This document shows, one piece after another, positions 20,984 through 42,435 of a stretch of DNA of 64,000 bases (the first letter of the stretch is position 1; every line of letters starts with the position of its first letter). This DNA is from an uncultured delta proteobacterium. GTDB taxonomy: Bacteria > Myxococcota_A > Polyangia > Polyangiales > Houyiibacteriaceae. The stretch covers positions 96,001-160,000 of the forward strand of contig CAVOVB010000001.1 of NCBI GenBank assembly GCA_963699755.1, read 5' to 3'. Under the pieces are notes generated by a model that worked only from the letters and a program-made list of their open reading frames with translations, made no database searches and was not told the DNA's origin. The position numbers and the translations under genes were made by a program.

Positions 20984-21068
20984 GGAGAGGTGACCGAGTG
21001 GTCGAAGGTGCACGACTGGAAATCGTGTGTGCCGAAAGGTACCGGGGGTTCGAATCCCTTCCTCTCCG
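20984..21068 (+). tRNA. tRNA-Ser(GGA)
   Basis: Anticodon arm CACGA-CTGGAAA-TCGTG, variable arm, T arm. CCA not encoded (CCG follows). Confidence 0.95.
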
Positions 21069-21104
21069 CCGATCGGCGCTCCCGCCCTGGGGGCTCCGCG
21101 ATAT

Positions 21105-21184
<80 letters not shown>

Positions 21185-21244
21185 TTTTTTACGCTATCTT
21201 TGTGCATGGCGGGCAAGAGGTCTTACTCAGCGATGGAGCGAATC

Positions 21245-22021: not shown

Positions 22022-22056
22022 AGCGTGAAGCCACGTGGCTACGAAGTCGCTCTGCG

Positions 22057-22133
22057 TGGCGGACTCAAGAGGACTCGAACCTCTAACCCCCGGCTCCGTA
22101 GGCCGGTGCTCTATCCAATTGAGCTATGAGTCC
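22057..22133 (-). tRNA. tRNA-Arg(ACG)
   Basis: Reverse complement GGACTCATAGCTCAATTGGATAGAGC..CCGGC-CTACGGA-GCCGG..GGTTCGAGTCC..CCA, 77 nt. Confidence 0.95.
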
Positions 22134-22213
22134 CCGGGATGCGCACGGTAGCGGCCCCGTCTGGAGCGTCAAGCGCCCCGGCTGGCGGGGCCCATGGCGG
22201 AAGCCCCTACCGG

Positions 22214-22303
22214 CGGAGAGGAAGGGATTCGAACCCCCGGTACGGCTCTACACCGTACGGTCGCTTAGCAAGCGACTGCCTTCGACCACTCGGCCACCTC
22301 TCC
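22214..22303 (-). tRNA. tRNA-Ser(GCT)
   Basis: Anticodon arm GTCGC-TTGCTAA-GCGAC, long variable arm. CCA not encoded. Confidence 0.95.
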
Positions 22304-27755: not shown

Positions 27756-29552
27756 CTATGCGTAGAAAGCGGCGATCTCCGAGGCGTACTTCTCGTTCAC
27801 GACGTTGCGCTTCACCTTGAGGGTCGGCGTCAGCTCGCCCCCATCCACGCTGAATACGGTCGGGAGAACCTGGATCTTCTTGATCGTCTGGTAGCGGGCG
27901 ACCTTGGAGTTGCAGAGCTCCTGCACCTCCTTTTCGATGTAGCGCTTCACGTCTGCGTTCCGGGCCGCGGTTTCGACGTCGCTCAGGCCGGAAATCTGAG
28001 AGGCCACCTCGAGCTCCGGCAGGGCCTCGGGGTCGAGGACGATCAAGGCCGACAGATAGGGTTGCCGATCGCCCACCACCACGGCCTGCCCAACACCGGG
28101 GATCGCCTGCAGGTAACCCTCCATCTCGGCGGGCGCGACGTTCTTGCCGCCGGCCGTGATGATGAGGTCCTTCTTGCGTCCTGTGATCGAAATGTAGCCC
28201 TTCTCATCGATCGCACCTAGGTCGCCGGTGTGCATCCAGCCCTCGTCGTCGTAGAGCTGGGCGGTCTTGTCGGGGAGGCGATGGTAGCCCTTCACCATGT
28301 TGACGCCCTTGAGCATGATCTCGCCGTCCTCGGCGATCTTGGCTTCGACGCCGGGAAGCGGCTTGCCGATCGTCCCGAACCGGAGCTTTCCGTACGGCTG
28401 CACGGAGGCAAAGGCCGTGGTCTCGGTCATCCCATAGCCTTCGTGAATCGGCAGGCCGATCGAAGCGAAGAACTCGAGCGTCGAAACCGAAATCGGCGCG
28501 GCGCCACTGACCGCAACCTGCAGTCGATCCAAGCCGAGCGCTTCCTTGATCTTGGAAATGACGAGCTTGTTGGCGAGACTGCGGGAAATGCTCGTCACCG
28601 GACGACCCGTCGCGGCCTCCTGCTTGAAGGCCTCGAGCTCCGTCTTTCGCGCCCAGCTTGCAAGCTTGGTTTTGATGCCGGTGGCCTCGGCGAGCTTGCC
28701 GCGAAGCGCGGCCTCGAACTTCTCCCAAACGCGGGGAACGGCGAGGAAGAACGTCGGGTGCACTTCGACGAGGTAGTCTTTGATCTGCGTGAGGTCGCTG
28801 CAGTAGAACGTTTCAGACTTCAGCGTGAGCCCCGCGAAGTTGGTCATCCCCTGTTCCGCGGCATGGCAGAGTGGCAGATAACTGACCGCGCGCGTCTCGG
28901 TCTCGAGAAGCGTCGGAAATACCTCGGCCACAGCATTGGCGATCAGCTCGATCCCCCGATGGGTGAGCATCGCCCCCTTGGGCAGCCCAGTCGTGCCCGA
29001 CGTGTAGATCAACAGCGCGACGTCGTCCGTCTCGACCGCGTCGAGCCGCGCGTCTAGCTCCGCGTCGCTGATCGAATCGCCCTTCGCCATCAGCCCAGCG
29101 AGGGTGATCACCCGAGGGTCGCGCGAGCCGAGGTCATCCATCGTGACGATGTGCTCGATCGGACTTTCCCCTTTGGCGATCGAGAAGAACTTGTTGAGCT
29201 GAATCTCATCGTCACAGATGACGATTCTCGACTGCGCATTGTTGATGATGTAGGCCATCTGCTCCGGCAGAAGCGTCGTATAGAGGGGCGCCGGAATTCC
29301 CTGAGCGGCGTTGATCCCGTGCTGGCAGATCACCCAGTCGCGCCGATTGGCCCCGACGATCGCCACGCATTCCTCAGGCTGAAGCCCTAGCGCCATGAGC
29401 CCCTTCCCCACCCGCCGAACGCTGTTCCAGTACTCGGCCCAGGTCGAGGTCGCCCAGCCCCCATTCGAGTCCCGATCGTGAATGGCGGGATCGTTCGGGT
29501 GCGCGTCGGCCCAACCTTCGATCCGCGAAAGCATCGTTCCTTGCAACGTCAT
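27756..29552 (-). CDS. Long-chain fatty acid-CoA ligase (paralog 1)
   Basis: IYTSGTTGLPKG, EGYGMTE, HTGDLG, GRKKDLIITAGGKN, ELTPTLK. Confidence 0.92.
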   Translation of the reverse strand: MTLQGTMLSRIEGWADAHPNDPAIHDRDSNGGWATSTWAEYWNSVRRVGKGLMALGLQPEECVAIVGANRRDWVICQHGINAAQGIPAPLYTTLLPEQMAYIINNAQSRIVICDDEIQLNKFFSIAKGESPIEHIVTMDDLGSRDPRVITLAGLMAKGDSISDAELDARLDAVETDDVALLIYTSGTTGLPKGAMLTHRGIELIANAVAEVFPTLLETETRAVSYLPLCHAAEQGMTNFAGLTLKSETFYCSDLTQIKDYLVEVHPTFFLAVPRVWEKFEAALRGKLAEATGIKTKLASWARKTELEAFKQEAATGRPVTSISRSLANKLVISKIKEALGLDRLQVAVSGAAPISVSTLEFFASIGLPIHEGYGMTETTAFASVQPYGKLRFGTIGKPLPGVEAKIAEDGEIMLKGVNMVKGYHRLPDKTAQLYDDEGWMHTGDLGAIDEKGYISITGRKKDLIITAGGKNVAPAEMEGYLQAIPGVGQAVVVGDRQPYLSALIVLDPEALPELEVASQISGLSDVETAARNADVKRYIEKEVQELCNSKVARYQTIKKIQVLPTVFSVDGGELTPTLKVKRNVVNEKYASEIAAFYA

Positions 29553-29694: not shown

Positions 29695-29718
29695 TGGCGG
29701 AGGAGGAGGGATTCGAAC
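29695..29718 (-). repeat. att core, displaced copy of the tRNA-Ser(TGA) 3' end
   Basis: TGGCGGAGGAGGAGGGATTCGAAC, identical to 40442-40465. Confidence 0.95.
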
Positions 29719-29824
29719 ACTCCGCGAATTGACCCTCTAAACGAGATCACCGGGTTTTTAGTCAGGGCACCGCATGAGCGGGGCCGCAAAAACCCCAACG
29801 AAAGCCGAGAGCGCGCCGAGGGCG

Positions 29825-29842
29825 TGACACCGGCCGTGACAC
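29825..29842 (+). repeat. TGACAC tandem pair, candidate integrase arm-type site
   Basis: TGACACCGGCCGTGACAC, matching TGACACCGGCATGACAC at 40390-40406. Confidence 0.6.
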
Positions 29843-29950
29843 TTCCGGCGCACCGCATTGGTGCGGGCGCCTACCCCAATTGCAAAGAGCCGGCCTCCAT
29901 CACAAGGCCGACTCCCTTTTGCGTGCCCCAAGCACGCTCATGGATCACAG

Positions 29951-30286
29951 ATGTCCAGACCATACAGACAAACCGCCAATTCGTCCAGACGACAGCTCAC
30001 GCTCCTACGCGATGACGGCATCGAACATCGCGTGCTCAAGCGGGCCTGCGACGAAATCAGAGACCGCCCGACCACGGCGCCGCTTTGGATTTTCCGGGTC
30101 GCCCAACACCAGCGGGCCGGGCGGCTGCCGTATCGCAAAGCCTGGGACCGGCTCTATGAGGCCGGGCTACGGGCTGGGATGAGTGAACAGCGGATCACCC
30201 GGCACCTGTATTCTGGCTTCGCGCTGGCGAACGCCTTCAAGAGCGAGCCGCCCGAGCTCCGCGCGCTGGCAGGGGGGCTGCAATGA
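29951..30286 (+). CDS. Hypothetical protein (element)
   Basis: ORF coupled by an ATGA overlap to the next gene. Start uncertain. Confidence 0.55.
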   Translation: MSRPYRQTANSSRRQLTLLRDDGIEHRVLKRACDEIRDRPTTAPLWIFRVAQHQRAGRLPYRKAWDRLYEAGLRAGMSEQRITRHLYSGFALANAFKSEPPELRALAGGLQ

Positions 30287-30468
30287 CCCGCGCCGACGAA
30301 ATGATCGCCTGCGCGCTCGAGTCGCTGGTCGACGACGGGATCTTCGTTCGAACCGGCGACCTGAACGACCACGGCGATCCCATCTACAAGCTGGCTCCCG
30401 GGCTCGAACGCCTAAGCGCCGGCGAGCTCGAGGCGCTGGCTGACTGCATCGGAGAGTGGAAGGCGTGA
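30283..30468 (+). CDS. Small hypothetical protein (element)
   Basis: 61 aa. Overlaps the upstream stop (ATGA) and the primase start (GTGA). Confidence 0.6.
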   Translation: MTRADEMIACALESLVDDGIFVRTGDLNDHGDPIYKLAPGLERLSAGELEALADCIGEWKA

Positions 30469-31436
30469 TCTCCATCGTCCGCAACCGATTCGTGAAGGGC
30501 TGGCCCCGTCACGATGACGGAGAACCCGTCTACGTGCGTGAGCTTGGCGAGGCGCTGCCCCGTCCGTATCGCACCGATGCTCACTTCATGGCCTACGCCT
30601 CGCCCAACGCTCGCAGGCTGACGCGCGAAGCCCTCGAGCAAGGCGTCACGGCGCCGATGTCTGCGATCGTTTTCGATGTCGATTGCGCTGACGTTCACGG
30701 GACCAGCGAGCCCGCACCGCAGAGCTGGCGGGATGCGTTGCTCAAGAAGATCGCGCGACTCTCCGAGGTTCACCCTGCCCCGTACACCTACGGAACCCGC
30801 GGCGGTGCCCGCATCCTGTACCGGCTGCCCGAACCGTTCGAGATCAAGTCCCACGATGATGCGCGCCAATGGTCGCAGCTCTACGCGGTGGCGCTGGCCT
30901 ACCTCGCGCGACGGTTCGGCATCGGCGCTGACCCTGCGTGCCACGACTGGCAGCGGTTGTTTCGACTCCCATTCGCAACGCGCGAGCCGGATGGGAAGCC
31001 GGAAGCCTGGCCGACCCTGGGCGACCCGCACAACATCGGGACGCTGAGGATTCACGCGATGGTCGACGACGTGAAGGCCGCGCGGGCGAGCTCGAAGGCG
31101 TTCTCGAGGAGCCGGATTTCGGACGTCACCCTTTGCGCCTCGAGCGGCGAGGGTTTGCTGTACCACCTACTCCGCGCGCGCGGCGATATTCTCCGCGAGC
31201 ATACGCAGCCGGGCGCCTACGTCGTCCGATGCCCAAGGGAGTCCGAGCATTCAACCGGGCGCACCGGAGATGGATCGACTCTGCTTTACCTGCCCGCGGT
31301 GGGTGAACAGGTCGGCGCCATCCATTGCCTTCACGCGCATTGCTCGAACCTGAGCGTGCGTGATTGGGTGCGGTGCTTTGAGGACCGCGAAGTACAAACG
31401 GCCCGACGCGCGGCCGGGATTGAGAGGGCTGCGTGA
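30465..31436 (+). CDS. AEP-superfamily primase with a C-terminal Zn-binding domain
   Basis: IVFDVD (motif I), YGTRGGARILY (motif II variant), DPACHDWQRLFRLP (motif III), C-terminal CP...H...CLHAHC. Confidence 0.75.
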   Translation: MISIVRNRFVKGWPRHDDGEPVYVRELGEALPRPYRTDAHFMAYASPNARRLTREALEQGVTAPMSAIVFDVDCADVHGTSEPAPQSWRDALLKKIARLSEVHPAPYTYGTRGGARILYRLPEPFEIKSHDDARQWSQLYAVALAYLARRFGIGADPACHDWQRLFRLPFATREPDGKPEAWPTLGDPHNIGTLRIHAMVDDVKAARASSKAFSRSRISDVTLCASSGEGLLYHLLRARGDILREHTQPGAYVVRCPRESEHSTGRTGDGSTLLYLPAVGEQVGAIHCLHAHCSNLSVRDWVRCFEDREVQTARRAAGIERAA

Positions 31437-32713
31437 GCTTTGTCACCATGCCGGAAGAGCCGGCCAACGGAACGCCCGCTAACGTCCGTCCGATCAAGTC
31501 CTGGAAGAAACGCCTCACGAAGGGACCGAAGGGCGGGATCAAGAGCACAGTTTCAAACGCGGTGCTGATCTTGTCCCACGATCGCGAATGGGGCGGCGTG
31601 CTGGGCTACGATGAGCGCGGCGAGGAGCCGATTCTACTTTCGAGGCCGCCGTTTCTCGATTGCCCCGACAGCATCCTACGGACACCGCGTTCGCTCACTG
31701 ATGCCGATGACGTTCGAACGACGCAATGGCTCGAGGAGCGGTATGGGATGTCGCAACCGCTAACCCAGGCTCACGCTGCATTGAACGCGGTCGCGCGCAC
31801 ATCGCCGTTCGACCGCGTGCGGGATTACCTCGACGGGCTCACCTGGGACCGAGAGAACCGCCTAGACGACTGGACCACCGAGTACCTTGGGACGCCTCGA
31901 ACCGCCTACACGAAGGCCGTAGGGCGGCGTTGGATGATCTCCGCGGTGGCCCGTACCTATGAGCCGGGATGCAAAGCAGATCATGTGATCGTGCTGGAAG
32001 GCAAACAGGGGATCGGCAAGAGCACCGCGCTCCGAATCCTGGGCGGGGACGAGTATTTCGGCGACGACATCCCGAGCCTGGGCTCGAAGGATGCGCAGCA
32101 ATACCTGGGAACCCTCTGGATCGTGGAGCTCGCCGAGATGGATGCTGCCACGAAATCCGAGGCGTCCACGCTCAAGCGGTTTCTCACGACCACGACAGAC
32201 CGCTATCGGCCGCCCTACGGTCGCCGGACCATCGTACACGCGCGGCGGTGTGTGTTTGCCGGCAGCGTCAACCTCGAGGCGTACCTCAAGGATTCAACAG
32301 GCGGCCGGAGGTTCTGGCCGCTGCAATGCTCCACGGTCGACCTCGAGGCCTTGGCCCTATCCCGAGACAGCCTGTGGGCCGAAGCGGTCGCCGCGTATCG
32401 CGCGGGCGAGAAGTGGCACCTCGACGATCCCGAGCTCGTCAGTCTCGCCGCGAGCGAGCAGACCGAACGCCTCGAGCGCGACCCCTGGCATGACAAGATC
32501 GCCGAGCACATCGCCAAGCCCATCGTGACGTTCATCACGACCCCGGACCTGCTGGAGCACGCCCTTGGGATGGACGCCGCGAAGATGAACAAGGCGGACA
32601 GCAACCGAGTCGGCGCCGTTATGCGGTCCGAGGGCTGGCAATATGGCGAAGGCGATCAGCGCCGCCGAGGCTGGCACCGCCCACCCCACGCAACCCACGC
32701 AAGTCCCAAATGA
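31433..32713 (+). CDS. VapE/VirE family P-loop helicase/ATPase
   Basis: PGCKADHVIVLEGKQGIGKST, WIVELAEM, DRYRPPYGR, LKDSTGGRRFWP. Confidence 0.9.
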   Translation: MSFVTMPEEPANGTPANVRPIKSWKKRLTKGPKGGIKSTVSNAVLILSHDREWGGVLGYDERGEEPILLSRPPFLDCPDSILRTPRSLTDADDVRTTQWLEERYGMSQPLTQAHAALNAVARTSPFDRVRDYLDGLTWDRENRLDDWTTEYLGTPRTAYTKAVGRRWMISAVARTYEPGCKADHVIVLEGKQGIGKSTALRILGGDEYFGDDIPSLGSKDAQQYLGTLWIVELAEMDAATKSEASTLKRFLTTTTDRYRPPYGRRTIVHARRCVFAGSVNLEAYLKDSTGGRRFWPLQCSTVDLEALALSRDSLWAEAVAAYRAGEKWHLDDPELVSLAASEQTERLERDPWHDKIAEHIAKPIVTFITTPDLLEHALGMDAAKMNKADSNRVGAVMRSEGWQYGEGDQRRRGWHRPPHATHASPK

Positions 32714-32839
32714 GATGCGTGGGTGGAATTCCGAGGGTTTTCAAGATGATCACACATCCACGCAACTATGCATGACGTACCTAATGTGCGTGCGCGCGCG
32801 AAGGTGCAAAGAACCGGGAAAAGATGCGTGGATGCGTGG
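32686..32839. repeat. Six CCACGCA/TGCGTGG heptamers, candidate replication origin
   Basis: CCACGCA at 32686, 32695 and 32758. Inverted TGCGTGG at 32716, 32825 and 32833. Confidence 0.6.
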
Positions 32840-32856
32840 GTGAAAGGAATGGACCG

Positions 32857-33174
32857 ATGACCGGCACCAACGAACCAACGAACCCCCAAACCCAAACTGA
32901 CGCTGCAAGCGAAGCGATCCGAACGCTCTGCGAGATCGTGTCCGAGCTCGACCAGGCGATAGGCTCGCTCTCCGAGCGACACGGGGCGCCCTTCACTGCC
33001 GGCGCGATGCTGTTTCTAGCGCAGGGCATGATGGCGATGGCCGAAGAGCACGGGACCGCGCCGGACGCGAAGTTGTGCTGCAGCCTGCTTTGCCGGCACC
33101 ACGGGCTGCGCGACCCATTCCCGGAGACGTTGGCGCGGGCGAAGGCGTTGCTGGGGGGTGCGGGGCAGGGGTGA
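32857..33174 (+). CDS. Hypothetical protein (element)
   Basis: About 105-aa helical ORF after a purine-rich RBS-like tract. Confidence 0.5.
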   Translation: MTGTNEPTNPQTQTDAASEAIRTLCEIVSELDQAIGSLSERHGAPFTAGAMLFLAQGMMAMAEEHGTAPDAKLCCSLLCRHHGLRDPFPETLARAKALLGGAGQG

Positions 33175-33269
33175 GGGGGTGGGCGCACCCGTTGCGTCGA
33201 CACTCCCATGAAACGCAGAGCTTGCGTCTTCGATGCAATCGAATTTCGGGAAGCAAACGCGAATCTGGC

Positions 33270-33285
33270 GGGAACGAAACTTGCA
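33270..33285 (+). promoter_or_regulatory. Possible sigma-54 promoter for the cargo gene
   Basis: GGGAACGAAACTTGCA: GG-N10-GC with a TTGCA -12 box. Confidence 0.4.
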
Positions 33286-33351
33286 CCCCGAATGCGTGAC
33301 CCGTTCCTGGTGACACCCCCCCTTCGCCGCGAACGGCGAAAGGAGCAGGCC

Positions 33352-35148
33352 ATGGAAGCGCACCGTTGCCCGTCGAGTTTGAAGCAGCGAGTTTGGTTCT
33401 CCCCCTATCTCCTGGCCGTCGCGCTGATGCCGGCTTTTATCCAGATCGACTACAGCGGCTGCTTCTACTACGGCGACTCGAGACTCTCGGAGCTCGAACT
33501 GATAGTCGAGGGCGAGAACCGAATCACTGGGTTTGATTCCGACCAACGAAGCTACGACGTAGTGTTGCCATTGGGTACGGCGGAAGCACGAGTCCGCTCC
33601 GTCGCCAACGATCCCGAGGGCCGCGTCTGGGTCTTCGTGCTCATTGACGGCGAGCGCTTTACGTATCTCGACGACGGCCACGGCGGCTCGGACATCGTCG
33701 TGCCCCTCTCGCCAGGGTCAAGTGTATTGCAGGTAGCAGTGGCACCGCATGGTCGAGCTACCGATTTCTATGAAGTGGCGATAGAGATTGGGATCGACCT
33801 GTGCGCGGGTGCGGACTGCGACGACGGCAACGACTGCACCGCTGATATTTGCGATCCGGCGGACGGGTCATGCACGAATGATTTGCTTCCCGAGGGTACG
33901 CTCTGCGGGGTTGACGGGGTGTGTGAAGCTGGGGCATGCCGGGAGAGGAGCTGGGGAACGCCCGTGTTTATCCAGAGCAACGCTGCCCCGGAATGGGCCC
34001 CCCAGCCAGTCGTCGACACTAGCGGGAATGCCACTGTCGTGTGGGTCGGAGTCGATGGGGTCGACTACGGGATCTGGGCCAACCGCTACACGCCCGGGGC
34101 TGGATGGGGGACGCCGGAACTCATCGCGACTGGCATTGACCAAGTACGTGTACCCAGATTAGCCGTCGAACCCAACGGGAATGTCATCGTGGTGGGGCAC
34201 CAGTACGATGGGTCCGAGTTCCGCATCTGGGCCAACCGCTACACGCCCGGGGCTGGATGGGGGATGCCGGAGTTTGTCGCGAGCAGCACCGGAGGGAACA
34301 TATACAACCCCCGGGTAGCCGTCGACCCCAGCGGCAATGCCATTGTGATGTGGCTCCAGCACGATGGGGTCGACTACGGGATCTGGGCCAACCGCTACAC
34401 GCCCGGGGCTGGATGGGGGACGCCGGAACTCATCGCGGTCGACGTTGATAATTGGTTCCAGCTAGCCGTCGACCCCAATGGGAATGCCATTGTGATGTGG
34501 GACCAGTACGATGGGGTCGACTGGGGGACCTGGGCCAACCGCTACACGCCCGGGGCTGGATGGGGGACGCCGGTGCCTATCCAGAGCAACGGCTATGCTG
34601 GCGGCGCCATGCTAGCCGTCGACCCCAATGGGAATGCCATTGCGATGTGGCACCAGTACGATGGGTCCAAGCACCACATCTGGGCCAACCGCTACACGCC
34701 AGCGACCGGCTGGGGGACGCCGGTGTCTATCCAGAGCAACGAAAGCGATGCTACACATCCCCAGATAGGAGTCGACCGCAACGGGAATGCCATTGTGGTG
34801 TGGCTCCAGCACGATGAGCCCGAGCACCACATCTGGGCCAACCGCTACACGCCAGCGACCGGTTGGGGGACGCCGGTGCCTATCCAGAGCAATGATACAG
34901 GCGCCGTTTTAGCCGTCGACCCCAATGGGAATGCCATTGCGATGTGGCACCAGTACGATGGGTCCAAGCACCACATCTGGGCCAACCGCTACACGCCAGC
35001 GACCGGCTGGGGGACGAGCGAGGAGATCGACACCGATCCTCTCGGATCGTCCGAGTGGAAGTTGGCGATTGGCCCGAACGGAAACGCCGTCGCTGTGTGG
35101 GCGAAACATATTCCCTTCATCGGCATTCAGGCCAACCACTTCGAGTAA
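33352..35148 (+). CDS. Exported cargo protein: cadherin-like beta-sandwich, Cys-rich linker and ~8-blade beta-propeller repeats
   Basis: AAGGAG RBS, hydrophobic leader with SGC, LSELEL..GFDSDQRSYDV, CDDGNDCTADIC, seven WANRYTP..GWG repeats. Confidence 0.75.
   Translation: MEAHRCPSSLKQRVWFSPYLLAVALMPAFIQIDYSGCFYYGDSRLSELELIVEGENRITGFDSDQRSYDVVLPLGTAEARVRSVANDPEGRVWVFVLIDGERFTYLDDGHGGSDIVVPLSPGSSVLQVAVAPHGRATDFYEVAIEIGIDLCAGADCDDGNDCTADICDPADGSCTNDLLPEGTLCGVDGVCEAGACRERSWGTPVFIQSNAAPEWAPQPVVDTSGNATVVWVGVDGVDYGIWANRYTPGAGWGTPELIATGIDQVRVPRLAVEPNGNVIVVGHQYDGSEFRIWANRYTPGAGWGMPEFVASSTGGNIYNPRVAVDPSGNAIVMWLQHDGVDYGIWANRYTPGAGWGTPELIAVDVDNWFQLAVDPNGNAIVMWDQYDGVDWGTWANRYTPGAGWGTPVPIQSNGYAGGAMLAVDPNGNAIAMWHQYDGSKHHIWANRYTPATGWGTPVSIQSNESDATHPQIGVDRNGNAIVVWLQHDEPEHHIWANRYTPATGWGTPVPIQSNDTGAVLAVDPNGNAIAMWHQYDGSKHHIWANRYTPATGWGTSEEIDTDPLGSSEWKLAIGPNGNAVAVWAKHIPFIGIQANHFE
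34075..35016 (+). repeat. Intragenic tandem repeats of 144-156 bp
   Basis: Identical core TGGGCCAACCGCTACACGCC at 34075, 34228, 34384, 34531, 34681, 34834 and 34978. Confidence 0.92.
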
Positions 35149-35194
35149 GTATGCCCCAGAGACCCCTAGATCCTGCAGCTCGACGGGCTCTAGC

Positions 35195-35236
35195 GACTCG
35201 ATGTGGGACGTGGGCGCGTTTGAGGTGCAGCCGTAG
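35195..35236 (+). pseudogene. Relic 3' end of a choice-of-anchor-Q-type gene
   Basis: Reads DSMWDVGAFEVQP-stop, resembling the C-terminal CD(I/V)GAFE motif, with no intact upstream gene. Confidence 0.45.
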
Positions 35237-35270
35237 GCGTGACCGTGGGTAGCGCAACGCCCTGCCTATC

Positions 35271-35315
35271 GGGTCCTTCCTAGCGTCGGCAGCCGAGAGG
35301 CTGGAAGGCTCGCAA
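35271..35315 (+). other. Candidate lambda-like cos site (cosQ-like GGGTCCT with downstream CTCGC)
   Basis: GGGTCCTTCC at 35271 and GGCTGGAAGGCTCGC at about the lambda cosN spacing. Intergenic, upstream of the capsid gene. Confidence 0.4.
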
Positions 35316-35461
35316 GGAATGATCGCTGAGAGGGAAATAGGAACGCGCCAAAACCAAGCGACCGCGCCGACCTCGCACATTTTGAGCCCTTTCAGCACCC
35401 TGGGGCGCTAAACATGAGCTTTCCTCACTTTCTGCTATGCTTGGGATGGAATGGAAAGACT

Positions 35462-37318
35462 ATGGCCAACAGATCGGAAGACGGCCCACCCGGGCAACTA
35501 GCCCGACGCCGAGCGGACGACGTGCCCTCGTTGATCGAAGGCATTTGGCGCCCGCAGTCGGCGAACGAAGCCAGCCGATCCGTGGAGGTCGTGTTTTCGA
35601 GCGGCGCGGACGTGCTTCGACAAAGCATGTTCGGCGACTACATCGAACGGCTACGCATTGACGCCGACTCCGTTGATCTGAGTCGACTTCGAACCGGGGC
35701 GCCGGTCTTAGACAGCCATCAAAGGGACGGCGTGCGCAACGTCTTAGGCACCGTGAGCGACGCTTGGATCGAAGGCGATCGCGGCGTGGCAAGAGTCCGT
35801 TTCAGCGAACGAGCTGCGGACGTTTGGAACGACGTGCGCGAAGGAATTCTGCGCCAGGTGTCGATCGGTTACTCACGCGATGCCGAGGTCGAGCTTGACG
35901 AAACGATCAACGGGGTTCCCGTGCGCGAAGTGACAAGGCTCACGCCCTACGAAATCAGTTTTGTCAGCATCGGCGCCGACCCTCATGCACAGGTGCGATC
36001 CCATGAAGTTACAACCGCGGTTCGGCCGCAGGAAGATGAACAAATGAGAGTGACAGACATCGAAGGCGAGCGCGCACGGTGCGCGTATATCGTCGAAAAC
36101 TGTGAGCGGCTTGGCTTGCCGGCTGAGTTCCGACGCGAGCTGATCGACAAAGGCATCAGCCGAGCCGAAGCCGCCGAGCGAATCCTCGAGTACAAGGCAA
36201 ACGAGCCGGGGCAGGTCGAAGAGATCGATCACAGGATCGAATTTTCCGACAGCCGAGCCCGCGACTTCGTCTCGGACGCCGCGGAAGGCTTGGCGGTTCG
36301 CGAGCGTGTTCTCAAGAGTACCGACAACGCCAATGCACGCGAGTTTGCCGGGCTGAGTTTCCTCGAAGTGGCGCAGCGTGCGGCAGGCATAAACGGCACC
36401 GATCTACGGGGCACGCGGGATCACATGAAGCTGCTACAGCGTGCGTGGAATACGAGTTCAACGTTGAGCGATACCGTCGCCGCGTTCAGCACCCGAAGCA
36501 TGATGGAAGCCTATGAAACGCCGCCGAGGACGTTCCTCGATGCGTTCCGTGAGTCCACGAGCCGCAACTTCCGAGCGAACGAACGAATCCGGCTTTCGGA
36601 CGCGCCCGCCTTGGCCGTTGTCGCTGAGGGCGATGCGTTCGGCGAAGTGAGCCTCAGCGATCGCAAAGAGACGTACACGGTTTCCAAGCGAGGCCATATC
36701 ATCGCGTTCACGTTTGAGAGCATGGTGAACGATGATTTGCAGGCGCTCGTTCGACAAAGCGAGCGCGCTGGTTTCAGCGCCGCGACGGCAGAGTCCGATG
36801 CTTTTTGGTCGGTCGTGACGGCGAACGGGAACCTTTCGGATTCCGCGCCCATCTTCGGCGCAGGAACCGGCAACTTGACGACCGGCGTTGCACTGACAGC
36901 CGACGCCCTCGAAGACATTCGCGAGAGCTTCCGAAACGCGGTCAGCGAAACCGGCGTGAAGTTGAATTTGACGCCGCGGTTCCTCTTCGTGGCACCGGAC
37001 CTGGAGCGGGCGGCGGAAAAGCTTCTGCGCCCGCCAACGAATCACAGCACGGCAACGATCGGCGACGTTCTTTCAAACCAGTACGCTTCGCAACTCGAGC
37101 TCCGCGTCGAAAGCAGGCTGCCCGCCGGTGACTACATGGTCGCCGCCGATTTCCGACAAATCGACACCGGCGAATATGCGTGGCTCCAAGGGACACGCGG
37201 ACCGCGGATCGAAAGTGACGAGGACTTCACCACCGCGGGAATCAAGTACCGCGTGATGGACGTGTTCGGCGCTGGCGTCATCGATCGCCGAGGACTGCTG
37301 TACAACGATGCGACCTAA
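35462..37318 (+). CDS. Prohead protease (HK97-type S78/U35) fused to a major capsid protein (Mu gpT/Gifsy-2-like)
   Basis: Protease motifs APVLDSH, ILRQVSIGY, PYEISFVSIGAD. Capsid motifs ETYTVSKRG, MVNDDLQA, LNLTPRFLFV.PDLE, EYAWLQG..GP, FGAGVID.RG. Alternative start at 35414. Confidence 0.88.
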   Translation: MANRSEDGPPGQLARRRADDVPSLIEGIWRPQSANEASRSVEVVFSSGADVLRQSMFGDYIERLRIDADSVDLSRLRTGAPVLDSHQRDGVRNVLGTVSDAWIEGDRGVARVRFSERAADVWNDVREGILRQVSIGYSRDAEVELDETINGVPVREVTRLTPYEISFVSIGADPHAQVRSHEVTTAVRPQEDEQMRVTDIEGERARCAYIVENCERLGLPAEFRRELIDKGISRAEAAERILEYKANEPGQVEEIDHRIEFSDSRARDFVSDAAEGLAVRERVLKSTDNANAREFAGLSFLEVAQRAAGINGTDLRGTRDHMKLLQRAWNTSSTLSDTVAAFSTRSMMEAYETPPRTFLDAFRESTSRNFRANERIRLSDAPALAVVAEGDAFGEVSLSDRKETYTVSKRGHIIAFTFESMVNDDLQALVRQSERAGFSAATAESDAFWSVVTANGNLSDSAPIFGAGTGNLTTGVALTADALEDIRESFRNAVSETGVKLNLTPRFLFVAPDLERAAEKLLRPPTNHSTATIGDVLSNQYASQLELRVESRLPAGDYMVAADFRQIDTGEYAWLQGTRGPRIESDEDFTTAGIKYRVMDVFGAGVIDRRGLLYNDAT

Positions 37319-37718
37319 CAAACTTCGCGGTGTGTTTAGTCTGCACGCCGAGTTGGTCCCCGTTCCTTCCTGTGCTTGAGCCTGCGAGTCAGTAGTTTTT
37401 TCGTCATCACTCCTGACTCGCAACCCCGTGCCCTCGTAGCAAACCTCGATTTTTCCATTTCTGGGGGGCGCTGCGGGGGCACACCTAATTTCGATGACGC
37501 GCCCTCGCGCAGAGGGTTCGCCATGAGCCTCCGCCGGTCTGGAGTTCGGTGGGGGCTCGCCTAATTCTGGTGAAGCCGCAACCCCGCCGCAGTCGTCCAG
37601 CCCCAGCGCAAACACCGACCGCCGAGGATGGCGCGAGAGGCCGCCAAATCGTTTCCAGGTGCTAGGCATCGTCCGGAATTGCGCGCGCGGAGACTGGCCG
37701 CTATCTCTGTTAACAATG

Positions 37719-37765
37719 TTGACAGGCAAGACAGGCCAGGCTAGCGTCCTTCCCATGAGACAGGC
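37719..37765 (+). promoter_or_regulatory. Sigma-70 promoter overlapped by GACAGGC repeats
   Basis: TTGACA (37719), 17 nt, TAGCGT (37742). GACAGGC at 37721, 37730 and 37759. Confidence 0.6.
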
Positions 37766-37784
37766 AATAGGGCAGGCTTCAGGC

Positions 37785-37976
37785 ATGGCATCCCGGTTGA
37801 TTTCGTTCCGCGTAGATGACGAGCTCGCAGACCGGCTCGACGCAGAGCTCGAGGAGATGAGGCAACGCGCGGACCTCGATGGGTACGAGTTGAGCGAGCC
37901 CGAATACTTTCGGATGCTGTTTCGGCAGGCACTATCCGACCGCGAAGCCAAGCGAAAGAAAAGCCGCAAGCGGTAG
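37785..37976 (+). CDS. Ribbon-helix-helix (CopG/Arc-like) DNA-binding protein
   Basis: SRLISFRVDDELADRLD..SE.EYFRML pattern with a basic tail. Confidence 0.65.
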   Translation: MASRLISFRVDDELADRLDAELEEMRQRADLDGYELSEPEYFRMLFRQALSDREAKRKKSRKR

Positions 37977-38029
37977 AAAGGAAAACGCCTCGCAGGGTCT
38001 AGGAAACCCTCGAGGCGTATGGCTCGAGC

Positions 38030-38683
38030 ATGACGAGCGAGAAAAAGGATACAGCACCGGGCGAAGAGGGCAAGGCGGAAAAGCCGGCGCCATCGCGTGT
38101 TAGTCCGATGGTCCTTCGCATGATCGACTGGACCGATGGACAGAGCCTCGCCGGCGCTGCCGATCCTGCAATCGAGCTCGCCCGCGGGTTTCATCGACTT
38201 CTAGATCGCGCCGACCTAGCGCCTAAGGACCGGAGCGCGGCGCTGGTCCTTTTCGATGCCTTGCTGGACGCCCTACTTGCTGGCGATCCACGGGCTGCCG
38301 TGGCGGCGGCTGCGCATCTGATCGATCGAGGCCACCATGCGCGCCGAGTGGGAGCGGCTGGGCCAGGTCGCTGGATCGAGGCTTTGAAATCGCGCCTTCC
38401 GACAATCCAAGCCGGCGACAGCGCGGGCGCCAAGAGAATCGCGATCACGCTGCTGCATGTCGACCTTTGTCTATCGGACGATCGAGCGGCGGCGCTGGAC
38501 ATCGGGGAGACAATCGAGCTGATCGGTCGGGAGCTGCCGCCGGGCGCCGTTCTTTCGCGAAAGGTGCTGCTCAACATCGCTTCCGAGCTCGCCGCACGGT
38601 CCGGGGCTTTCGATTGCAAGGACCCGAAGGCAGCGAAGGACAAACTCCGCAAGCACTTTTCGAAGGGCTCACCGGATGCCTAA
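38030..38683 (+). CDS. Hypothetical protein (element)
   Basis: 217-aa helical ORF with no motif I recognise. Confidence 0.55.
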   Translation: MTSEKKDTAPGEEGKAEKPAPSRVSPMVLRMIDWTDGQSLAGAADPAIELARGFHRLLDRADLAPKDRSAALVLFDALLDALLAGDPRAAVAAAAHLIDRGHHARRVGAAGPGRWIEALKSRLPTIQAGDSAGAKRIAITLLHVDLCLSDDRAAALDIGETIELIGRELPPGAVLSRKVLLNIASELAARSGAFDCKDPKAAKDKLRKHFSKGSPDA

Positions 38684-38687
38684 TTTC

Positions 38688-38701
38688 GGAAACGCGTTTC
38701 C
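38688..38701. promoter_or_regulatory. Perfect 14-bp palindrome, candidate operator
   Basis: GGAAACGCGTTTCC upstream of the XRE-xis-int operon. Confidence 0.5.
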
Positions 38702-38742
38702 AAGTGACCGACCCCGTCCGAGGCTGGTAGTCAACACTCACA

Positions 38743-38955
38743 ATGACCGGCACCGACGATCAAACGAGGCGACGAATCCGGCAACTCCGCGACGCTGCCG
38801 GACTGACGCAAACCCGGCTGGCTTGGCGCACCGGCATCCATCGAAGCACGCTGGCTCAAATCGAGCTTGGCTATATTCGGCTGTACCCGGGGCACCTGAA
38901 ACGCATCGCGCGGGCGCTGGACGTGACGTTGGACGAGCTCCGGGGGGCGGCGTGA
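38743..38955 (+). CDS. XRE/Cro-family HTH regulator
   Basis: IRQLRDAAGLTQTRLA..TGIHRSTLAQIELG..LKRIARALDV. Confidence 0.88.
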   Translation: MTGTDDQTRRRIRQLRDAAGLTQTRLAWRTGIHRSTLAQIELGYIRLYPGHLKRIARALDVTLDELRGAA

Positions 38956-39251
38956 AGATGGCCCCGGTTCACCGGCTCCCCGATGTTGGTGACGGTGACG
39001 ATAGTCGCCGACTGGTCGACATGACCTGGGGCGAGCTTCGCGCGCTCCTGGCCGATGAGCTGCGGCGACTCAGTGACCCTGATACCCAGATCATGAAGCC
39101 AACCGAGTTCGCTAGGCTGTTGGGCGTTGCGGAAAAGCGCGTTCAAGAGTGGTGCGAAATGGGGATGCCGTTCATCCCAACCGGCGACATCAAGGGCAAG
39201 CGCATTCGAACGCAGAGTGCGCTGGCATGGCTGGAGGCCCGTGGTGGCTAA
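38952..39251 (+). CDS. Excisionase-like HTH protein
   Basis: GTGA overlap with the XRE gene. IMKPTEFARLLGVAEKRVQEWCEMGMP..RIR..ALAWLE, directly upstream of the integrase. Confidence 0.75.
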   Translation: MKMAPVHRLPDVGDGDDSRRLVDMTWGELRALLADELRRLSDPDTQIMKPTEFARLLGVAEKRVQEWCEMGMPFIPTGDIKGKRIRTQSALAWLEARGG

Positions 39252-40392
39252 GAGGCGTGGCCCTACCGGCGAGGAGCTGCCCGCGGGCATTTCCTGGGAT
39301 GCATCGAAGAGGCGCTACCGCGTCCGCGGCAAGCATGGGGGCAAGACCCTGTCCGATGCGATGAAGAGGAAGCGCGACCTCGACCGTGAGGCGCGTGGTG
39401 TGAAGCCTCACGTACTGTCTGCCTACTTCGACCACTGGGCGGCCTGGCAGCAGCGCAAGGGTCGCCGCAACGTGAAGAAGGACCGCCGCCGCCTCGAGCT
39501 CCACGTCGAACCCACGTTCGGGCAGAAGGCGTTGACTGGCTTGACGCCGCCCGAGCTCCTCGATTTGTATTGGAAGCTCTACGACAGCGGCGATGGTGTG
39601 ATCGGCGCCCGGACGATTCGGGACGTGAACGGACTAATCAGCAGTGTCTACTCGTTGGCGGTGTTCGAGGGGTTGGCGGACTACAACCCAGCAACGCAGA
39701 TGCCGCGCGGTTCGATGCCGAAGGTCGGCGACAACCCCTGGGAGAGGTACGAACCGGGGGAAGTTGTGACCCTGCTTACCGACGAACGAATCCGGCTCGA
39801 CCGCCGCGTGCTTTACGCTCTGCTCTTCTGGTTCGCGGACCGCGAGGGCGAGGGCTGCGGGTTCACGTTTGAGGACTACGACCGCCTCCCGAAGCCTCTA
39901 GGCGCGATGGCAATCGACAAGCAGTACCAGGGGCAGCCGTTGAAGGGCAGCCGAGATGACTACATCGCCGCGCGTCGATTTCCGGTGCATCCCGAAGCCG
40001 CGGCCTTGATCGCGCGCTGGAGATTGTCGGGCTTCCCGTCGATCTTCGGCCGAACCCCTCGATGCGATGACCCGATCGTGCCTAATCCCCGCACCATGAA
40101 GGCCCGCAAGCCGAACGCGGTCTACAAGGCGCTGATCGAAGATGAGAAGCGCGTCGGCATCGAGCACAAGAAGGGTCGCGCGACCCACGGGTTCCGCAAG
40201 TGCTGGATCTCGATGGCGCATGAAGCCGGGGCCAACCGTGAAGCCGTTCGCGTTCTCACACACACTGGGCGGTCGCGCGATGTGCTGGACCGCTATGCAC
40301 TCTGGTCCTGGGACAAGCTCTGCGAAACTGCGGCGCTCGTCGAGCTCCCCGAGACTGCACAAGTGATCGCGTTAGGGGGCCGTCGTGCATGA
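39241..40392 (+). CDS. Tyrosine recombinase/integrase
   Basis: SAM-like LELHVEPTFG, catalytic R (ADREGE), HGFR, THT and Y (DRY). Next to att and the tRNA. Confidence 0.88.
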   Translation: MVAKRRGPTGEELPAGISWDASKRRYRVRGKHGGKTLSDAMKRKRDLDREARGVKPHVLSAYFDHWAAWQQRKGRRNVKKDRRRLELHVEPTFGQKALTGLTPPELLDLYWKLYDSGDGVIGARTIRDVNGLISSVYSLAVFEGLADYNPATQMPRGSMPKVGDNPWERYEPGEVVTLLTDERIRLDRRVLYALLFWFADREGEGCGFTFEDYDRLPKPLGAMAIDKQYQGQPLKGSRDDYIAARRFPVHPEAAALIARWRLSGFPSIFGRTPRCDDPIVPNPRTMKARKPNAVYKALIEDEKRVGIEHKKGRATHGFRKCWISMAHEAGANREAVRVLTHTGRSRDVLDRYALWSWDKLCETAALVELPETAQVIALGGRRA

Positions 40393-40406
40393 CACCGGCA
40401 TGACAC
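40390..40406 (+). repeat. TGACAC tandem pair, candidate integrase arm-type site
   Basis: TGACACCGGCATGACAC between the integrase stop and the att core. Confidence 0.6.
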
Positions 40407-40441
40407 CGTTTGCGTTCGTCGCAGAAAACCCAGCGCGAAGT

Positions 40442-40531
40442 TGGCGGAGGAGGAGGGATTCGAACCCCCGGTAGAGTCGCCCCTACAACGGATTTCAAAT
40501 CCGCCGCCTTCGACCGCTCGGCCACTCCTCC
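40442..40531 (-). tRNA. tRNA-Ser(TGA), integration target
   Basis: Reverse complement GGAGGAGTGGCCGAGCGGTCGAAGGC..GCGGA-TTTGAAA-TCCGT..GGTTCGAATCCCTCCTCCTCCGCCA. Confidence 0.95.
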
Positions 40532-40647
40532 GTGAGGGGGCGATTTAGCACAGGCTTCGCTCGGTTGCCCTTCCCATTCGAGTCGATCTCGGCCTATATT
40601 TGGCGGTCCCCAGACGGTGGGCGGCTGGGCACTCGAAAGGTGACGCT

Positions 40648-42435
40648 GTGGCGACTGACACGATTCCAAATCGACTTCTGCAAAGAGCGAAAAGGACCCC
40701 CAACGATCCTGCGTACTACGTACGCGAAGGCGGCAGCTGGAAGCCGACGAGCTGGGGCAGGTACTCCGACCAGGTGACGCAGGCCGGGCGCGCGTTGATC
40801 GCCCTTGGCTTCAAGCCAGGACAGACGGTTTGCATCCTCGGGTTCAATCGCCCCGAATGGGCGATCATCGACCTCGCCACAATGGGTGCCGGCGGCGCGC
40901 CCGCTGGCATCTACACCACCTGCTCCCCCGTCGAGGTTCGTTACATCGTCGCCCATGCCGAAGCGCCGGTCATCATCGTCGAGAATGAAGATCAGTGGCG
41001 CAAGGTTCTAGCGGAACGCGAGAACATGCCGAACCTGAAGCACGTCGTCACGATGAAGGGCTGTCCCCCGATCGCTGACGAGATGGTGATGAGCTGGGAA
41101 GAGTTCATGGCCAAGGGCGACGAGGTCGAGAAGCAGGCTTACCTCGGCCGCGTCGAGAGTCTGAATCCGAAGGCGCTTGCAACTCTGATCTACACCTCCG
41201 GCACGACGGGCCCGCCCAAGGGCGTCATGCTGAGCAACGAGAACCTGGCCTGGACGTCGAACATCGCCATCCAGATCACGACGATCAACTCGACGGATTG
41301 CTCGCTCTCCTATCTGCCGCTTTCGCACATCGCCGAGCAGATGTTCACGCTGCACATTCCGATCACCACCGGCGCGCGGGTGTACTTCGCCGAGTCGATC
41401 GAAGCGGTTCCCGAAAACCTCAAAGAGGTTCAGCCCACCATCTTCTTCGGCGTGCCGCGGATCTGGGAGAAGTTCCACGCCGGCATCTCCGCCAAGCTCG
41501 AGGAAGCGACGGGTGTGAAGGCCAGGCTGGTGAAATGGGCGATGAAGGTCGGCTGGGAGGCCAACCAAAGCCCCGAGGGCACCAAAGGCCTTCAATATGC
41601 GCTCGCCAACAAGCTGATCTATTCGAAGCTCCTGCCAGCGATCGGCATGGGCAATGCCCGGGTTTGCGTCACCGGCGCGGCACCCATTGCACGCGAGGTG
41701 CTCGAATTCTTCGCGAGCTTGGACCTCGTCGTGCTCGAGGTCTATGGGCAGTCGGAGGACAGCGGCCCGACCAGCTTCAACACCCCGACCCGGTATCGTT
41801 TTGGCAGCGTCGGTCCCGCACTGCCGGGGGTCGAGGTGAGGATCGCCGAAGACGACGAGATCATGGTCAAGGGCCCCAACGTGTTCATGGGTTACTACAA
41901 GGACAAGGAGGCAACCGACGAGACGCTCACCGACGGTTGGTTGCATTCGGGTGACTTGGGCGCCTTCGATAAGGACGGGTTCTTGAACATCACTGGCCGC
42001 AAGAAGGACATCATCATCACCGCCGGCGGCAAGAACATCACGCCGAAGAACCTCGAAGCGGCCATCAAGAACCATCCGCTCGTCGACGAAGCCGTGGTGA
42101 TCGGCGATCGTCGCAAGTACCTGAGCGCGCTCGTCACCATCGATGCCGAGGCGGGCCCGACCTGGGCTGCAGCCAATGGCGAAGATGCCAGCGCGCTACA
42201 CAAAAGCCAGAAGCTCAGGGCGAGCATCCAGGCGCACATCGACGAGATGAACGCCCATTTCGCGCGCGTGGAGCAAATCAAGAAGTTCACCATTCTCAAG
42301 CGAAACTTCAGCATCGAAGATGGCGAGCTCACGCCGACCTTGAAGGTGAAGCGGGCCAAGGTGAACGCTCACTTCGCCGAAGACATCGAGAAGATGTACG
42401 ACGAGGGCGGCGCGCAGGCCCAGCCGAGGGCGTAG
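40648..42435 (+). CDS. Long-chain fatty acid-CoA ligase (paralog 2)
   Basis: IYTSGTTGPPKG, YGQSE, HSGDLG, GRKKDIIITAGGKN. Confidence 0.92.
   Translation: MATDTIPNRLLQRAKRTPNDPAYYVREGGSWKPTSWGRYSDQVTQAGRALIALGFKPGQTVCILGFNRPEWAIIDLATMGAGGAPAGIYTTCSPVEVRYIVAHAEAPVIIVENEDQWRKVLAERENMPNLKHVVTMKGCPPIADEMVMSWEEFMAKGDEVEKQAYLGRVESLNPKALATLIYTSGTTGPPKGVMLSNENLAWTSNIAIQITTINSTDCSLSYLPLSHIAEQMFTLHIPITTGARVYFAESIEAVPENLKEVQPTIFFGVPRIWEKFHAGISAKLEEATGVKARLVKWAMKVGWEANQSPEGTKGLQYALANKLIYSKLLPAIGMGNARVCVTGAAPIAREVLEFFASLDLVVLEVYGQSEDSGPTSFNTPTRYRFGSVGPALPGVEVRIAEDDEIMVKGPNVFMGYYKDKEATDETLTDGWLHSGDLGAFDKDGFLNITGRKKDIIITAGGKNITPKNLEAAIKNHPLVDEAVVIGDRRKYLSALVTIDAEAGPTWAAANGEDASALHKSQKLRASIQAHIDEMNAHFARVEQIKKFTILKRNFSIEDGELTPTLKVKRAKVNAHFAEDIEKMYDEGGAQAQPRA

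Follow-up and report, generated by a model that had tools for sequence, protein, structure and literature searches.

The window analysed here is a stretch of 64,000 nucleotides (nt) from contig CAVOVB010000001.1 of an uncultured delta proteobacterium (Myxococcota_A; Polyangia; Polyangiales; Houyiibacteriaceae). At 35462–37318 it carries an open reading frame (ORF) that joins a phage-type prohead protease, a helical, scaffold-like linker and a major capsid protein in a single polypeptide. This fusion gene lies within an island (29695–40465) that is bounded by exact 24-nt direct repeats, its attachment (att) repeats. They are spaced 10,747 bp apart, which bears out the ~11 kb for which an earlier note on this DNA had supposed a small capsid to be sized. 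The repeat is the 3′ end of a tRNA-Ser(tga) gene. A frame plot of G+C content at third codon positions (GC3), together with family searches, gives twelve genes in the island, all in the same orientation (Table 1).

The reading frame of the fusion gene is free of stops from 35414 to 37318 on the forward strand (634 amino acids (aa)). Its likely start is the ATG at 35462, which yields 618 aa; this is the database's own gene call (P0002), and it is also the start point of eight close homologues in the alignment. The earlier note had described an intact ORF of ~618 aa with LDSH, VSIGY and YEIS motifs, and all three are found in the translation. In Pfam, the protein matches PF25209 (Phage_capsid_4; E = 1.6e-30, residues 350–629), PF04586 (Peptidase_S78; E = 2.3e-7, 31.5 bits with a cut-off of 21, residues 123–196) and PF10124 (Mu-like gpT; E = 7.6e-5, 22.6 bits with a cut-off of 20.1). 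Two fusion families cover it over its full length: phrog_4523, ‘major head and protease protein’ (E = 6.9e-130, residues 46–632, profile positions 21–642 of 644), and NCBIfam NF045541, ‘prohead protease/major capsid protein fusion protein’ (E = 2.8e-133, residues 35–616, profile positions 2–632 of 634). By these profile matches, the window's protein belongs, as a divergent member, to the NF045541/phrog_4523 family of phage head proteins.

A full-length AlphaFold2 (AF2) model built with 29 homologues has a mean predicted local distance difference test (pLDDT) score of 77.5 and comprises a β-rich N-terminal domain (residues 39–184), helices (211–377) and an α/β C-terminal domain. Searched against the PDB with Foldseek, the model gives 366 matches at E ≤ 0.001 with HK97-fold capsids on top (1ohg_A, E = 9.6e-9), and PDB profile matches of the capsid domain are to Mu-gpT-type capsids (9jod_A, E = 1.2e-10; 8rkc_A, E = 9e-7). 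An encapsulin identity was considered, since encapsulins are among the fold matches, and is ruled out by the fusion to protease and scaffold and by the phage-family sequence matches. The N-terminal domain folded alone reaches a pLDDT of 86, and its best VIA match is the prohead protease gp21 of phage T4 (5jbl_A; Z = 10.1, root mean square deviation 3.4 Å over 132 residues), followed by the protease of the herpesvirus VZV (varicella-zoster virus; Z = 7.1). Foldseek with this domain alone returns no PDB match at E ≤ 0.001 (the best is 5jbl_B, 5.6e-3) and is not significant by itself; the protease fold is therefore called from the VIA alignment and the hidden Markov model (HMM) matches. His102, Ser150 and Glu180 (634-aa numbering) are invariant in all 29 aligned homologues. 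By sequence and model, the protease domain of the fusion has the S78/assemblin fold and conserves the His and Ser, its putative catalytic residues. The architecture read off in the earlier note, an S78 protease followed by a helical scaffold-like linker and a Mu-gpT-like capsid domain, is recovered in PF04586, the AF2 helices, and PF25209 with PF10124, and the HK97 fold and catalytic residues that it anticipated are likewise found.

Genes that would normally accompany such a head protein are missing from the island. Among its ORFs we found no full-length match to portal, large or small terminase, connector, head-completion, tail or lysis families in Pfam, PHROGs or NCBIfam, in agreement with the earlier note's remark that the fusion has neither a portal nor a head-completion gene as a neighbour. 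The whole genome, which is 100% complete with 9% contamination in 11 contigs, has no match to PF05136 (lambda portal) or PF05876 (GpA terminase), other portal and large terminase (TerL) families having been tested on the island ORFs only, and we found no second copy of the fusion in it. As far as the usual companion families of its relatives are concerned, the fusion therefore stands alone in the whole genome. P4-type proteins (Sid/Psu, delta, epsilon, alpha primase, AlpA) also gave no PHROG or Pfam match among the island ORFs, in a search that did not include dedicated P4 profiles.

Relatives of the fusion usually sit in a different setting. In Rhodobacter phage RcDormio, the homologue (gp9, 29% identical to the window's protein) follows terS, terL, gpW and the portal gene and precedes head–tail genes. 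Within the phylum, fusion homologues occur in 20 of 401 genomes (G000 included). We examined 18 loci, leaving out two matches on contigs shorter than 3.4 kb, by scanning ORFs of at least 170 aa, picked by a GC3–GC2 filter, against Pfam. A PF05136 portal lies directly upstream of the fusion in 13 of the 18, and most of these also have head or tail genes and a GpA terminase close by. In the L041 locus (L041:64-7233, genome G254), two transposase genes (rve, DDE_Tnp_1) take the place of the portal and terminase on the upstream side of a prophage-type fusion, and genes for sheath and baseplate are still found downstream; the L050 locus is cut by a contig end next to an integrase. The other three loci (L051, L054 and L055) are small islands that lack a portal and TerL. 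The earlier note had placed such fusions between a lambda-type portal and head-completion genes in Gifsy-2-like phages. The upstream portal holds for RcDormio and for the 13 loci; the comparison with Gifsy-2 is loose, as the ClpP-like fusion model NF045540 matches the window's protein far more weakly (E = 3e-49) than the S78-type NF045541.

A maximum-likelihood tree of 45 fusion proteins, from a quick IQ-TREE search with support from the SH-like approximate likelihood ratio test (SH-aLRT) only, groups the window's protein in a clade of 11 with G128, L012 (a copy from a metagenome) and eight proteins of the database whose contigs do not exceed 15.5 kb. The clade has an SH-aLRT of 100 and a stem of 1.13 changes per site, and the 12 prophage or phage copies on the tree all fall outside it. 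The island copies thus form a clade of their own, an outcome that the earlier note had left to phylogeny. The L050 fusion falls outside on a long, unreliable branch. The ratio of nonsynonymous to synonymous substitution rates (dN/dS; NG86) is 0.17–0.22 against L012 and L013 and 0.38 against G128, values that are rough because dS is saturated; with that reservation, the sequences indicate that selection on the fusion is purifying and, as to a further point of the earlier note, not relaxed. The linker, measured from D189 to R296, is 107 aa long in the window and 107–123 aa in all ten clade members measured, compared with 149–174 aa in 9 of the 12 prophage or phage copies, but linker length alone does not separate the groups because the other three are equally short. 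The core segments of the capsid have a near-constant length in all sequences. A second tight clade of eight fusions (P0023–P0031; 584–613 aa), one of them from an 8.76-Mb contig, has the shortest linkers of all, at 80–84 aa.

The same architecture recurs elsewhere. Including that of the window, we recognize six islands that are integrated at tRNA genes and combine att repeats, an integrase, replication genes and a protease–capsid fusion, with sizes of 9.1–10.7 kb. Two of the others come from the same genus: G128 (9,792 bp with a 51-nt att, at tRNA-Asp) and G048 (~10.5 kb by estimate, at tRNA-Ser, as in the window). The remaining three are L051 (9,207 bp, tRNA-Arg), L054 (9,678 bp, tRNA-Pro) and L055 in genome G463 (9,085 bp, tRNA-Met). 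The replication modules of the six islands differ, being of VapE, D5 or DnaB-like type, or AAA_25 with ERF, and the fusions of L051, L054 and L055 use another capsid family, PF05065. A Nu1-type small terminase stands beside the fusion in G128 and L054 (phrog_57, E = 7.9e-15 and 1.4e-29). The G048 island, which is divided between the ends of two contigs, has orf1, orf2, the XRE and Xis genes and the integrase in common with the window's island.

No recognizable portal or TerL was found in the five other islands; one 520-aa ORF of G048 has no family match. This ORF, which gave no hit in Pfam, PHROGs, NCBIfam or the PDB, belongs to a very large unannotated family with one member named ‘putative DNA primase/helicase’ at its source. 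It is probably a replication protein, although formally it could still be a portal for the G048 island. The G128 and G048 genomes have no PF05136 portal, and a lambda-type portal occurs in only 1 of the 55 genomes of the genus. In that genus, genome G541 (contig C1; L058:7210-11285) holds a GpA-type large terminase and a lambda-family portal alone among housekeeping genes, with an esterase upstream and a metallo-beta-lactamase-fold protein and citrate synthase downstream. The 20 kb around this pair contain no capsid or other phage gene among ORFs of at least 90 aa. A separate observation is that the 9.1-kb L055 island encodes a 711-aa tape-measure-like protein (L055:11652-13787; phrog_8125, E = 7.9e-15) and no other tail gene, which recalls the tape-measure-carrying satellites of mycobacteria (PMC12822802).

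Such pieces bear on one alternative, that the window's island is a decayed prophage remnant, which has lost its portal, terminase and tail genes and retains the capsid gene as a functionless leftover. Phage debris does occur in the genus, as the lone TerL and portal remnant in G541 shows, the L041 fusion has insertion sequence elements in place of its portal and TerL side, and the G048 copy of the fusion looks broken. Yet in the window the ORF is intact, with invariant catalytic residues and a dN/dS of about 0.2, the att repeats are exact, the integrase is intact, and the island contains no fragments of tail, lysis or portal genes. Moreover, the same reduced gene set occurs at five other sites in different tRNA genes, and the island clade is set apart from the prophage copies. 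We consider a remnant quite unlikely.

On balance, our analysis of the sequence leans towards the island being a satellite that resembles phage-inducible chromosomal islands (PICIs), inserted in tRNA-Ser(tga), whose fusion would build or redirect small heads as Ccm of SaPIbov5 does. The earlier note had supposed that the fusion could assemble a small capsid, or could redirect or poison the head assembly of a helper; all the computational checks that it listed turned out as it would have them, and its proposal is thereby supported in part. The satellite reading draws on the anatomy of the island (att repeats, tRNA, integrase, helix-turn-helix (HTH) proteins, VapE and, as a lead, a RepB-like primase), on a fusion whose genome has no match to the lambda portal and GpA terminase families, unlike the prophage context of the 13 loci, and on the recurrence of this architecture at tRNA genes in a narrow size range, with a separate clade and a shorter linker. 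The fusion itself looks functional because of its full-length family matches, its two predicted folds, the invariant catalytic residues and the low dN/dS.

In the mechanism that we propose, growth in the cell of a helper phage that has a lambda-type portal and a cos terminase of GpA type would lead the island to excise and replicate. The fusion protein would then assemble on the helper portal, either by itself or together with the fusion protein of the helper, and its shorter built-in scaffold linker would fix the shell at a small, T=4-like size. The protease domain of the island's fusion would cut away the protease and scaffold parts, and the terminase, connectors and tail of the helper would complete particles of ~10 kb, too small for the helper genome. 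Such particles could both spread the island and interfere with the helper, as found experimentally for SaPIbov5 Ccm.

Several findings weigh against this reading. No helper is seen: the one genome of the genus with a lambda-type portal, out of 55, has the lone TerL and portal pair. In the window's island we found neither a small terminase nor a cos or pac site, and blastn revealed no non-coding block, as a candidate cos site, conserved with the G048 or G128 islands. An attP or attB form, or a joint across the island, was not seen in short Logan contigs from two sediment-metagenome runs of one study, contigs that cannot show absence. The G048 fusion lies on two contig ends, C10 (L037:1-880) and C11 (L038:1-1160), with an overlap of ~48 codons, and runs through several frames with internal TAA and TGA codons; this copy is either decayed or misassembled at a variable site. 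Genomic context is known for just 2 of the 11 members of the window's clade, the dS values behind the selection estimate are saturated (1.5–2.6), and three prophage copies (L042, L046 and L056) have linkers of 114–120 aa, as short as those of the island clade. The NF045541 score of the fusion, 445.8 bits, is below the curated naming cut-off of 525, a divergence consistent with the long stem branch in the tree. Finally, the triangulation (T) number of any shell is not derivable from a monomer model.

Most of the PICI core set, as described in PMC10085698, is present in the window's island: an integrase with a specific att site, a primase–replicase module (VapE, with the RepB-like primase as a lead), a capsid-morphogenesis gene in the form of the fusion, a capsid homologue by Pfam and PHROGs, and a size of 10,747 bp beside a median of ~9.5 kb, with no tail or lysis families matched. 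The small terminase subunit has no full-length match here and is present in the sister islands of G128 and L054; PICIs that carry the cos or pac site of their helper are likewise described without terS (PMC6092414). As for a regulator of the AlpA, MerR or Stl type, an HTH_17 match falls under the cut-off (E = 0.0048) and an XRE-type repressor is clear. By contrast, the portal, large terminase, head–tail adaptor and connector that characterize capsid-forming PICIs (cf-PICIs) have no match in the island, and the portal, terminase, tail and lysis genes or remnants of a complete or defective prophage are not seen among its ORFs.

The closest parallel in known systems is SaPIbov5 Ccm, which by experiment makes small capsids and blocks phages of the cos type but not those of the pac type (Carpena et al. 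2016, PMC5052747). Like the window's fusion, it is a satellite-borne HK97-fold capsid homologue in a small island that lacks a portal and large terminase, and its N-terminal helical scaffold is shorter than that of the helper. In Ccm, the delta domain falls 44 residues short of that of the helper (PMC5052747), which parallels the short linker of the window's clade, and the helpers of SaPIbov5 are cos phages, as the proposed helper would be. Unlike the window's protein, a complete fusion with conserved catalytic residues, Ccm is a 355-aa protein that has no protease domain and forms no capsids alone. The likeness between the two is only in fold, and ours, a putative capsid protein, comes from an uncultured deltaproteobacterial lineage.

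Ccm also lends weight to a second alternative, in which the island is purely an element of anti-phage interference or defence that is never packaged, the fusion co-assembling with or titrating phage head parts (portal, capsid protein or protease substrate) and so poisoning assembly. Overexpression of Ccm alone lowers phage titres 10^3- to 10^4-fold (PMC5052747), the window's island has no match to a small terminase or recognizable packaging signal, and no helper prophage is seen among the 55 genomes. However, a size range of 9.1–10.7 kb over six islands with differing sites and replication modules is hard to account for unless packaging sets a limit, a small terminase of Nu1 type, which serves packaging, is encoded by two sister islands, and PADLOC matched no defence family in the island, only generic HTH proteins. 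Interference as the whole explanation seems unlikely to us, and it overlaps with the satellite reading, since known satellites combine interference with transfer.

Two further PICIs share the layout of integrase, regulator and pri–rep module with a lone capsid homologue: PmCI172 of Pasteurella and EcCICFT073, with its gene c1499 (Fillol-Salom et al. 2018, PMC6092414; Dokland 2019, PMC6893505). PmCI172 is packaged in small heads and EcCICFT073 in full-size lambda heads. They differ from the window's island in that the role of their capsid homologue is unproven, and no protease fusion is reported in the available text of these sources; the window's island, for its part, has no terS match. Together with Ccm, these precedents (PMC5052747, PMC6092414) lessen the novelty that the earlier note had implied for a lone satellite capsid. 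Experiment has already provided a precedent for the redirection of head size by a capsid homologue of a satellite, and the present case extends this principle rather than adding a new one.

The cf-PICIs resemble the window's island in being satellites that build their own small capsids (Alqurainy et al., 10.1101/2022.09.08.507074; de Sousa et al. 2023, PMC10085698), and in those of Firmicutes the capsid gene is merged with a protease (PMC10085698). As described there, however, they are defined by genes for a portal, TerL, TerS, HNH, head–tail adaptor and connector, none of which is matched in the window's island. It is conceivable, if rather doubtful, that ‘shell-only’ capsid-forming satellites stand between classical PICIs and cf-PICIs. 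In these, one polypeptide would provide protease, scaffold, shell and capsid size, with portal, terminase, connectors and tail coming from a lambda-type helper. They would have arisen at least twice, with fusions of Mu-gpT/PF25209 type and of HK97/PF05065 type, and would be held at 9–11 kb by a T=4-like head.

Prohead protease–capsid fusions of tailed phages, such as RcDormio gp9, share the domain order and full-length homology of the window's protein; theirs lie within head operons, whereas the window's fusion is alone, on a long branch, and has a shorter linker than 9 of the 12 copies compared. P4 packs 11.6 kb in a T=4 head (quoted in PMC13669383), and the six island sizes are near that value. 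P4 and the window's element are both small islands, and P4 has a cos site, but it reshapes the helper's capsid protein with an external scaffold (Sid/Psu) and has no capsid gene. The elements phiRv1 and phiRv2 of Mycobacterium tuberculosis carry capsid and protease genes. These small prophage-like elements are filed as PICIs by SatelliteFinder (PMC10085698). In a limited keyword search of the literature, supplementary tables aside, we found no description of satellites whose sole virion gene is a complete protease–scaffold–capsid fusion.

An October 2026 metagenome report describes small integrase-bearing genomes with an HK97 capsid that lack portal, terminase and tail (Aguilar et al. 2026, PMC13669383). 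These ‘twilight-zone’ genomes are like the window's island in their size (5–11.6 kb), in combining an integrase and excisionase with replication genes and in having the HK97 capsid as nearly the sole structural gene. They raise the possibility of the window's island being a ‘mini’ HK97-fold virus, autonomous and portal-less, with its genome enclosed without portal, terminase or tail, and the report leaves both satellite and non-canonical lifestyles open for its own genomes. As described there, their main group is from the human gut, at ~8.75 kb, and has encapsulin-like capsid domains and a separate scaffold, and the word ‘protease’ is absent from the available text. The window's protein is instead a lambda/Mu-gpT-type head protein with an S78 protease, typical of tailed phages, and in 13 of the 18 loci its relatives are linked with a lambda portal and a GpA terminase. 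Replication by primase and helicase also differs from the rolling-circle Rep of that report, and two sister islands hold a small terminase subunit, which points to conventional packaging by a helper. An autonomous mini-virus is thus highly improbable.

Should the fusion, in the satellite reading, fix a small head size by itself, no simpler capsid-size switch would be known from any satellite. A single gene would do, compared with a separate scaffold (CpmAB, Sid, TcaP) or the whole head module of cf-PICIs, and a satellite shell could be built on a foreign portal. The island would extend capsid-carrying satellites to an uncultured deltaproteobacterial lineage from sediment; it is a concrete case, with defined limits, of the small HK97 elements without a portal that were found in metagenomes, and it favours a satellite reading of those as well. 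Being compact, the fusion protein is a candidate, too, for the production of small, defined protein shells.

Table 1 Features of the tRNA-Ser(tga) island, in coordinates of the window
Feature	Position	Strand	Basis
attL, displaced copy of the final 24 nt of tRNA-Ser(tga)	29695..29718	.	Exact repeat of 40442-40465
orf1, hypothetical, up to 142 aa	29858..30286	+	GC3 phase; tblastn 34% identity to G048 L037:6208-5771; no family match
orf2, hypothetical, 61 aa	30283..30468	+	GC3 phase; 62% identity to G048 L037:5771-5619
orf3, 326 aa, RepB-like primase lead	30456..31436	+	ESM Atlas
orf4, VapE-type primase-associated helicase, 426 aa	31433..32713	+	PF05272 E 3.6e-79; phrog_1313 E 3e-97; phrog_256 DNA helicase E 2e-94
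orf5, hypothetical, 116 aa	32824..33174	+	Strong GC3 phase, 0.86-0.90; no family match
orf6, 646 aa, Cys-rich, ~50-aa tandem repeats	33208..35148	+	7 copies of a 144-156-nt repeat
Prohead protease/scaffold-like linker/major capsid protein fusion, 618 aa	35462..37318	+	ORF, family matches, models; longer ORF start 35414
Protease domain of fusion, residues ~40-195 (634-aa numbering), with His102, Ser150, Glu180	35531..35998	+	PF04586, domain model, T4 gp21 likeness
Helical scaffold-like linker of fusion, residues ~196-349	35999..36460	+	AF2 helices 211-347 flanked by low-confidence hinges
HK97-fold capsid domain of fusion, residues 350-634	36461..37318	+	PF25209 E 1.6e-30, Foldseek PDB capsids, PDB profile matches
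orf8, small protein, probable start 37785	37659..37976	+	Translation read by eye; no family match; weak GC3 support
orf9, 217-aa orphan ORF	38030..38683	+	Ambiguous GC3 signal
orf10, XRE/Cro-CI-type HTH repressor, 70 aa	38743..38955	+	NF041951 RstR E 5.7e-10; 13 PHROG regulator families, best 2.4e-11; GC3 phase; 52% identity to G048
orf11, Xis/AlpA-like HTH_17 protein, ~97 aa (ORF open from 38676)	38958..39251	+	Start inferred from GC3 phase change
Tyrosine integrase, ORF 421 aa, true start maybe later	39127..40392	+	phrog_1 E 1.3e-24; PF22022 Phage_int_M E 3.4e-6; 50% identity to G048 integrase
tRNA-Ser(tga), its 3′ 24 nt (40442-40465) being attR	40442..40531	-	ARAGORN, repeat

Only five island ORFs exceed 300 aa: the primase-like orf3, VapE, the repeat lipoprotein orf6, the fusion and the integrase. 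The orf3 product has no Pfam, PHROG, NCBIfam or PDB sequence match. In the ESM Atlas (recognition 3190), its first matches, at 0.97–0.99, are to viral clusters of ~330 aa, nine of them with PF16793 (RepB_primase), and a RepB-like primase is probable from this lead. The orf6 product matches the PDIAV lipoprotein model NF053835 weakly, under the cut-off (E = 5.1e-8), and has paralogues in the same genome at C10:15202-17007 (the closest, 54% identical over 613 aa), C7:4701-5909, C3:238560-240107 and C2:366338-367452; we found no homologue in the G128 and G048 islands. By sequence, it is probably a secreted lipoprotein, cargo picked up from a multi-copy family of the host. Three contig joints listed in the two metagenome runs fall in or beside the orf6 repeats.

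Among the smaller genes, orf8 looks like a ribbon-helix-helix regulator from its translation. The orphan orf9 may not be a real gene: it has no relative besides itself among 5.8 billion proteins and no family or PDB match, and its ESM recognition is low, at 1562. The orf11 product gives the sub-threshold match to HTH_17 (PF12728) mentioned above and a phrog_57 match confined to its N-terminal HTH part (E = 9.4e-7), and is 51% identical to the product of the G048 gene immediately upstream of the G048 integrase. A scan for promoters and terminators stayed at chance level, and no RNA runs containing the island are listed. An alignment scan for close homologues gave no loci in viral contigs, one locus in genome contigs (L011, the same DNA as G048 contig C11) and two short metagenome contigs.

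The island is flanked by two AMP-binding (acyl-CoA-synthetase-like) genes with the same three-domain pattern, at 27756–29552 on the reverse strand and 40600–42435 on the forward strand, and four tRNA genes (Ser-cga, Ser-gga, Arg-acg and Ser-gct) are clustered at 20811–22303, ~8 kb upstream. The 24-nt att core includes the palindrome TTCGAA. Its orientation relative to the island genes is reversed between the window's and G048 islands, which have the same tRNA-Ser target and integrases that are 50% identical: in the window's island the intact tRNA is found past the integrase end, and in G048 past the orf1 end (L037:6328-6351; L038:4278-4300).

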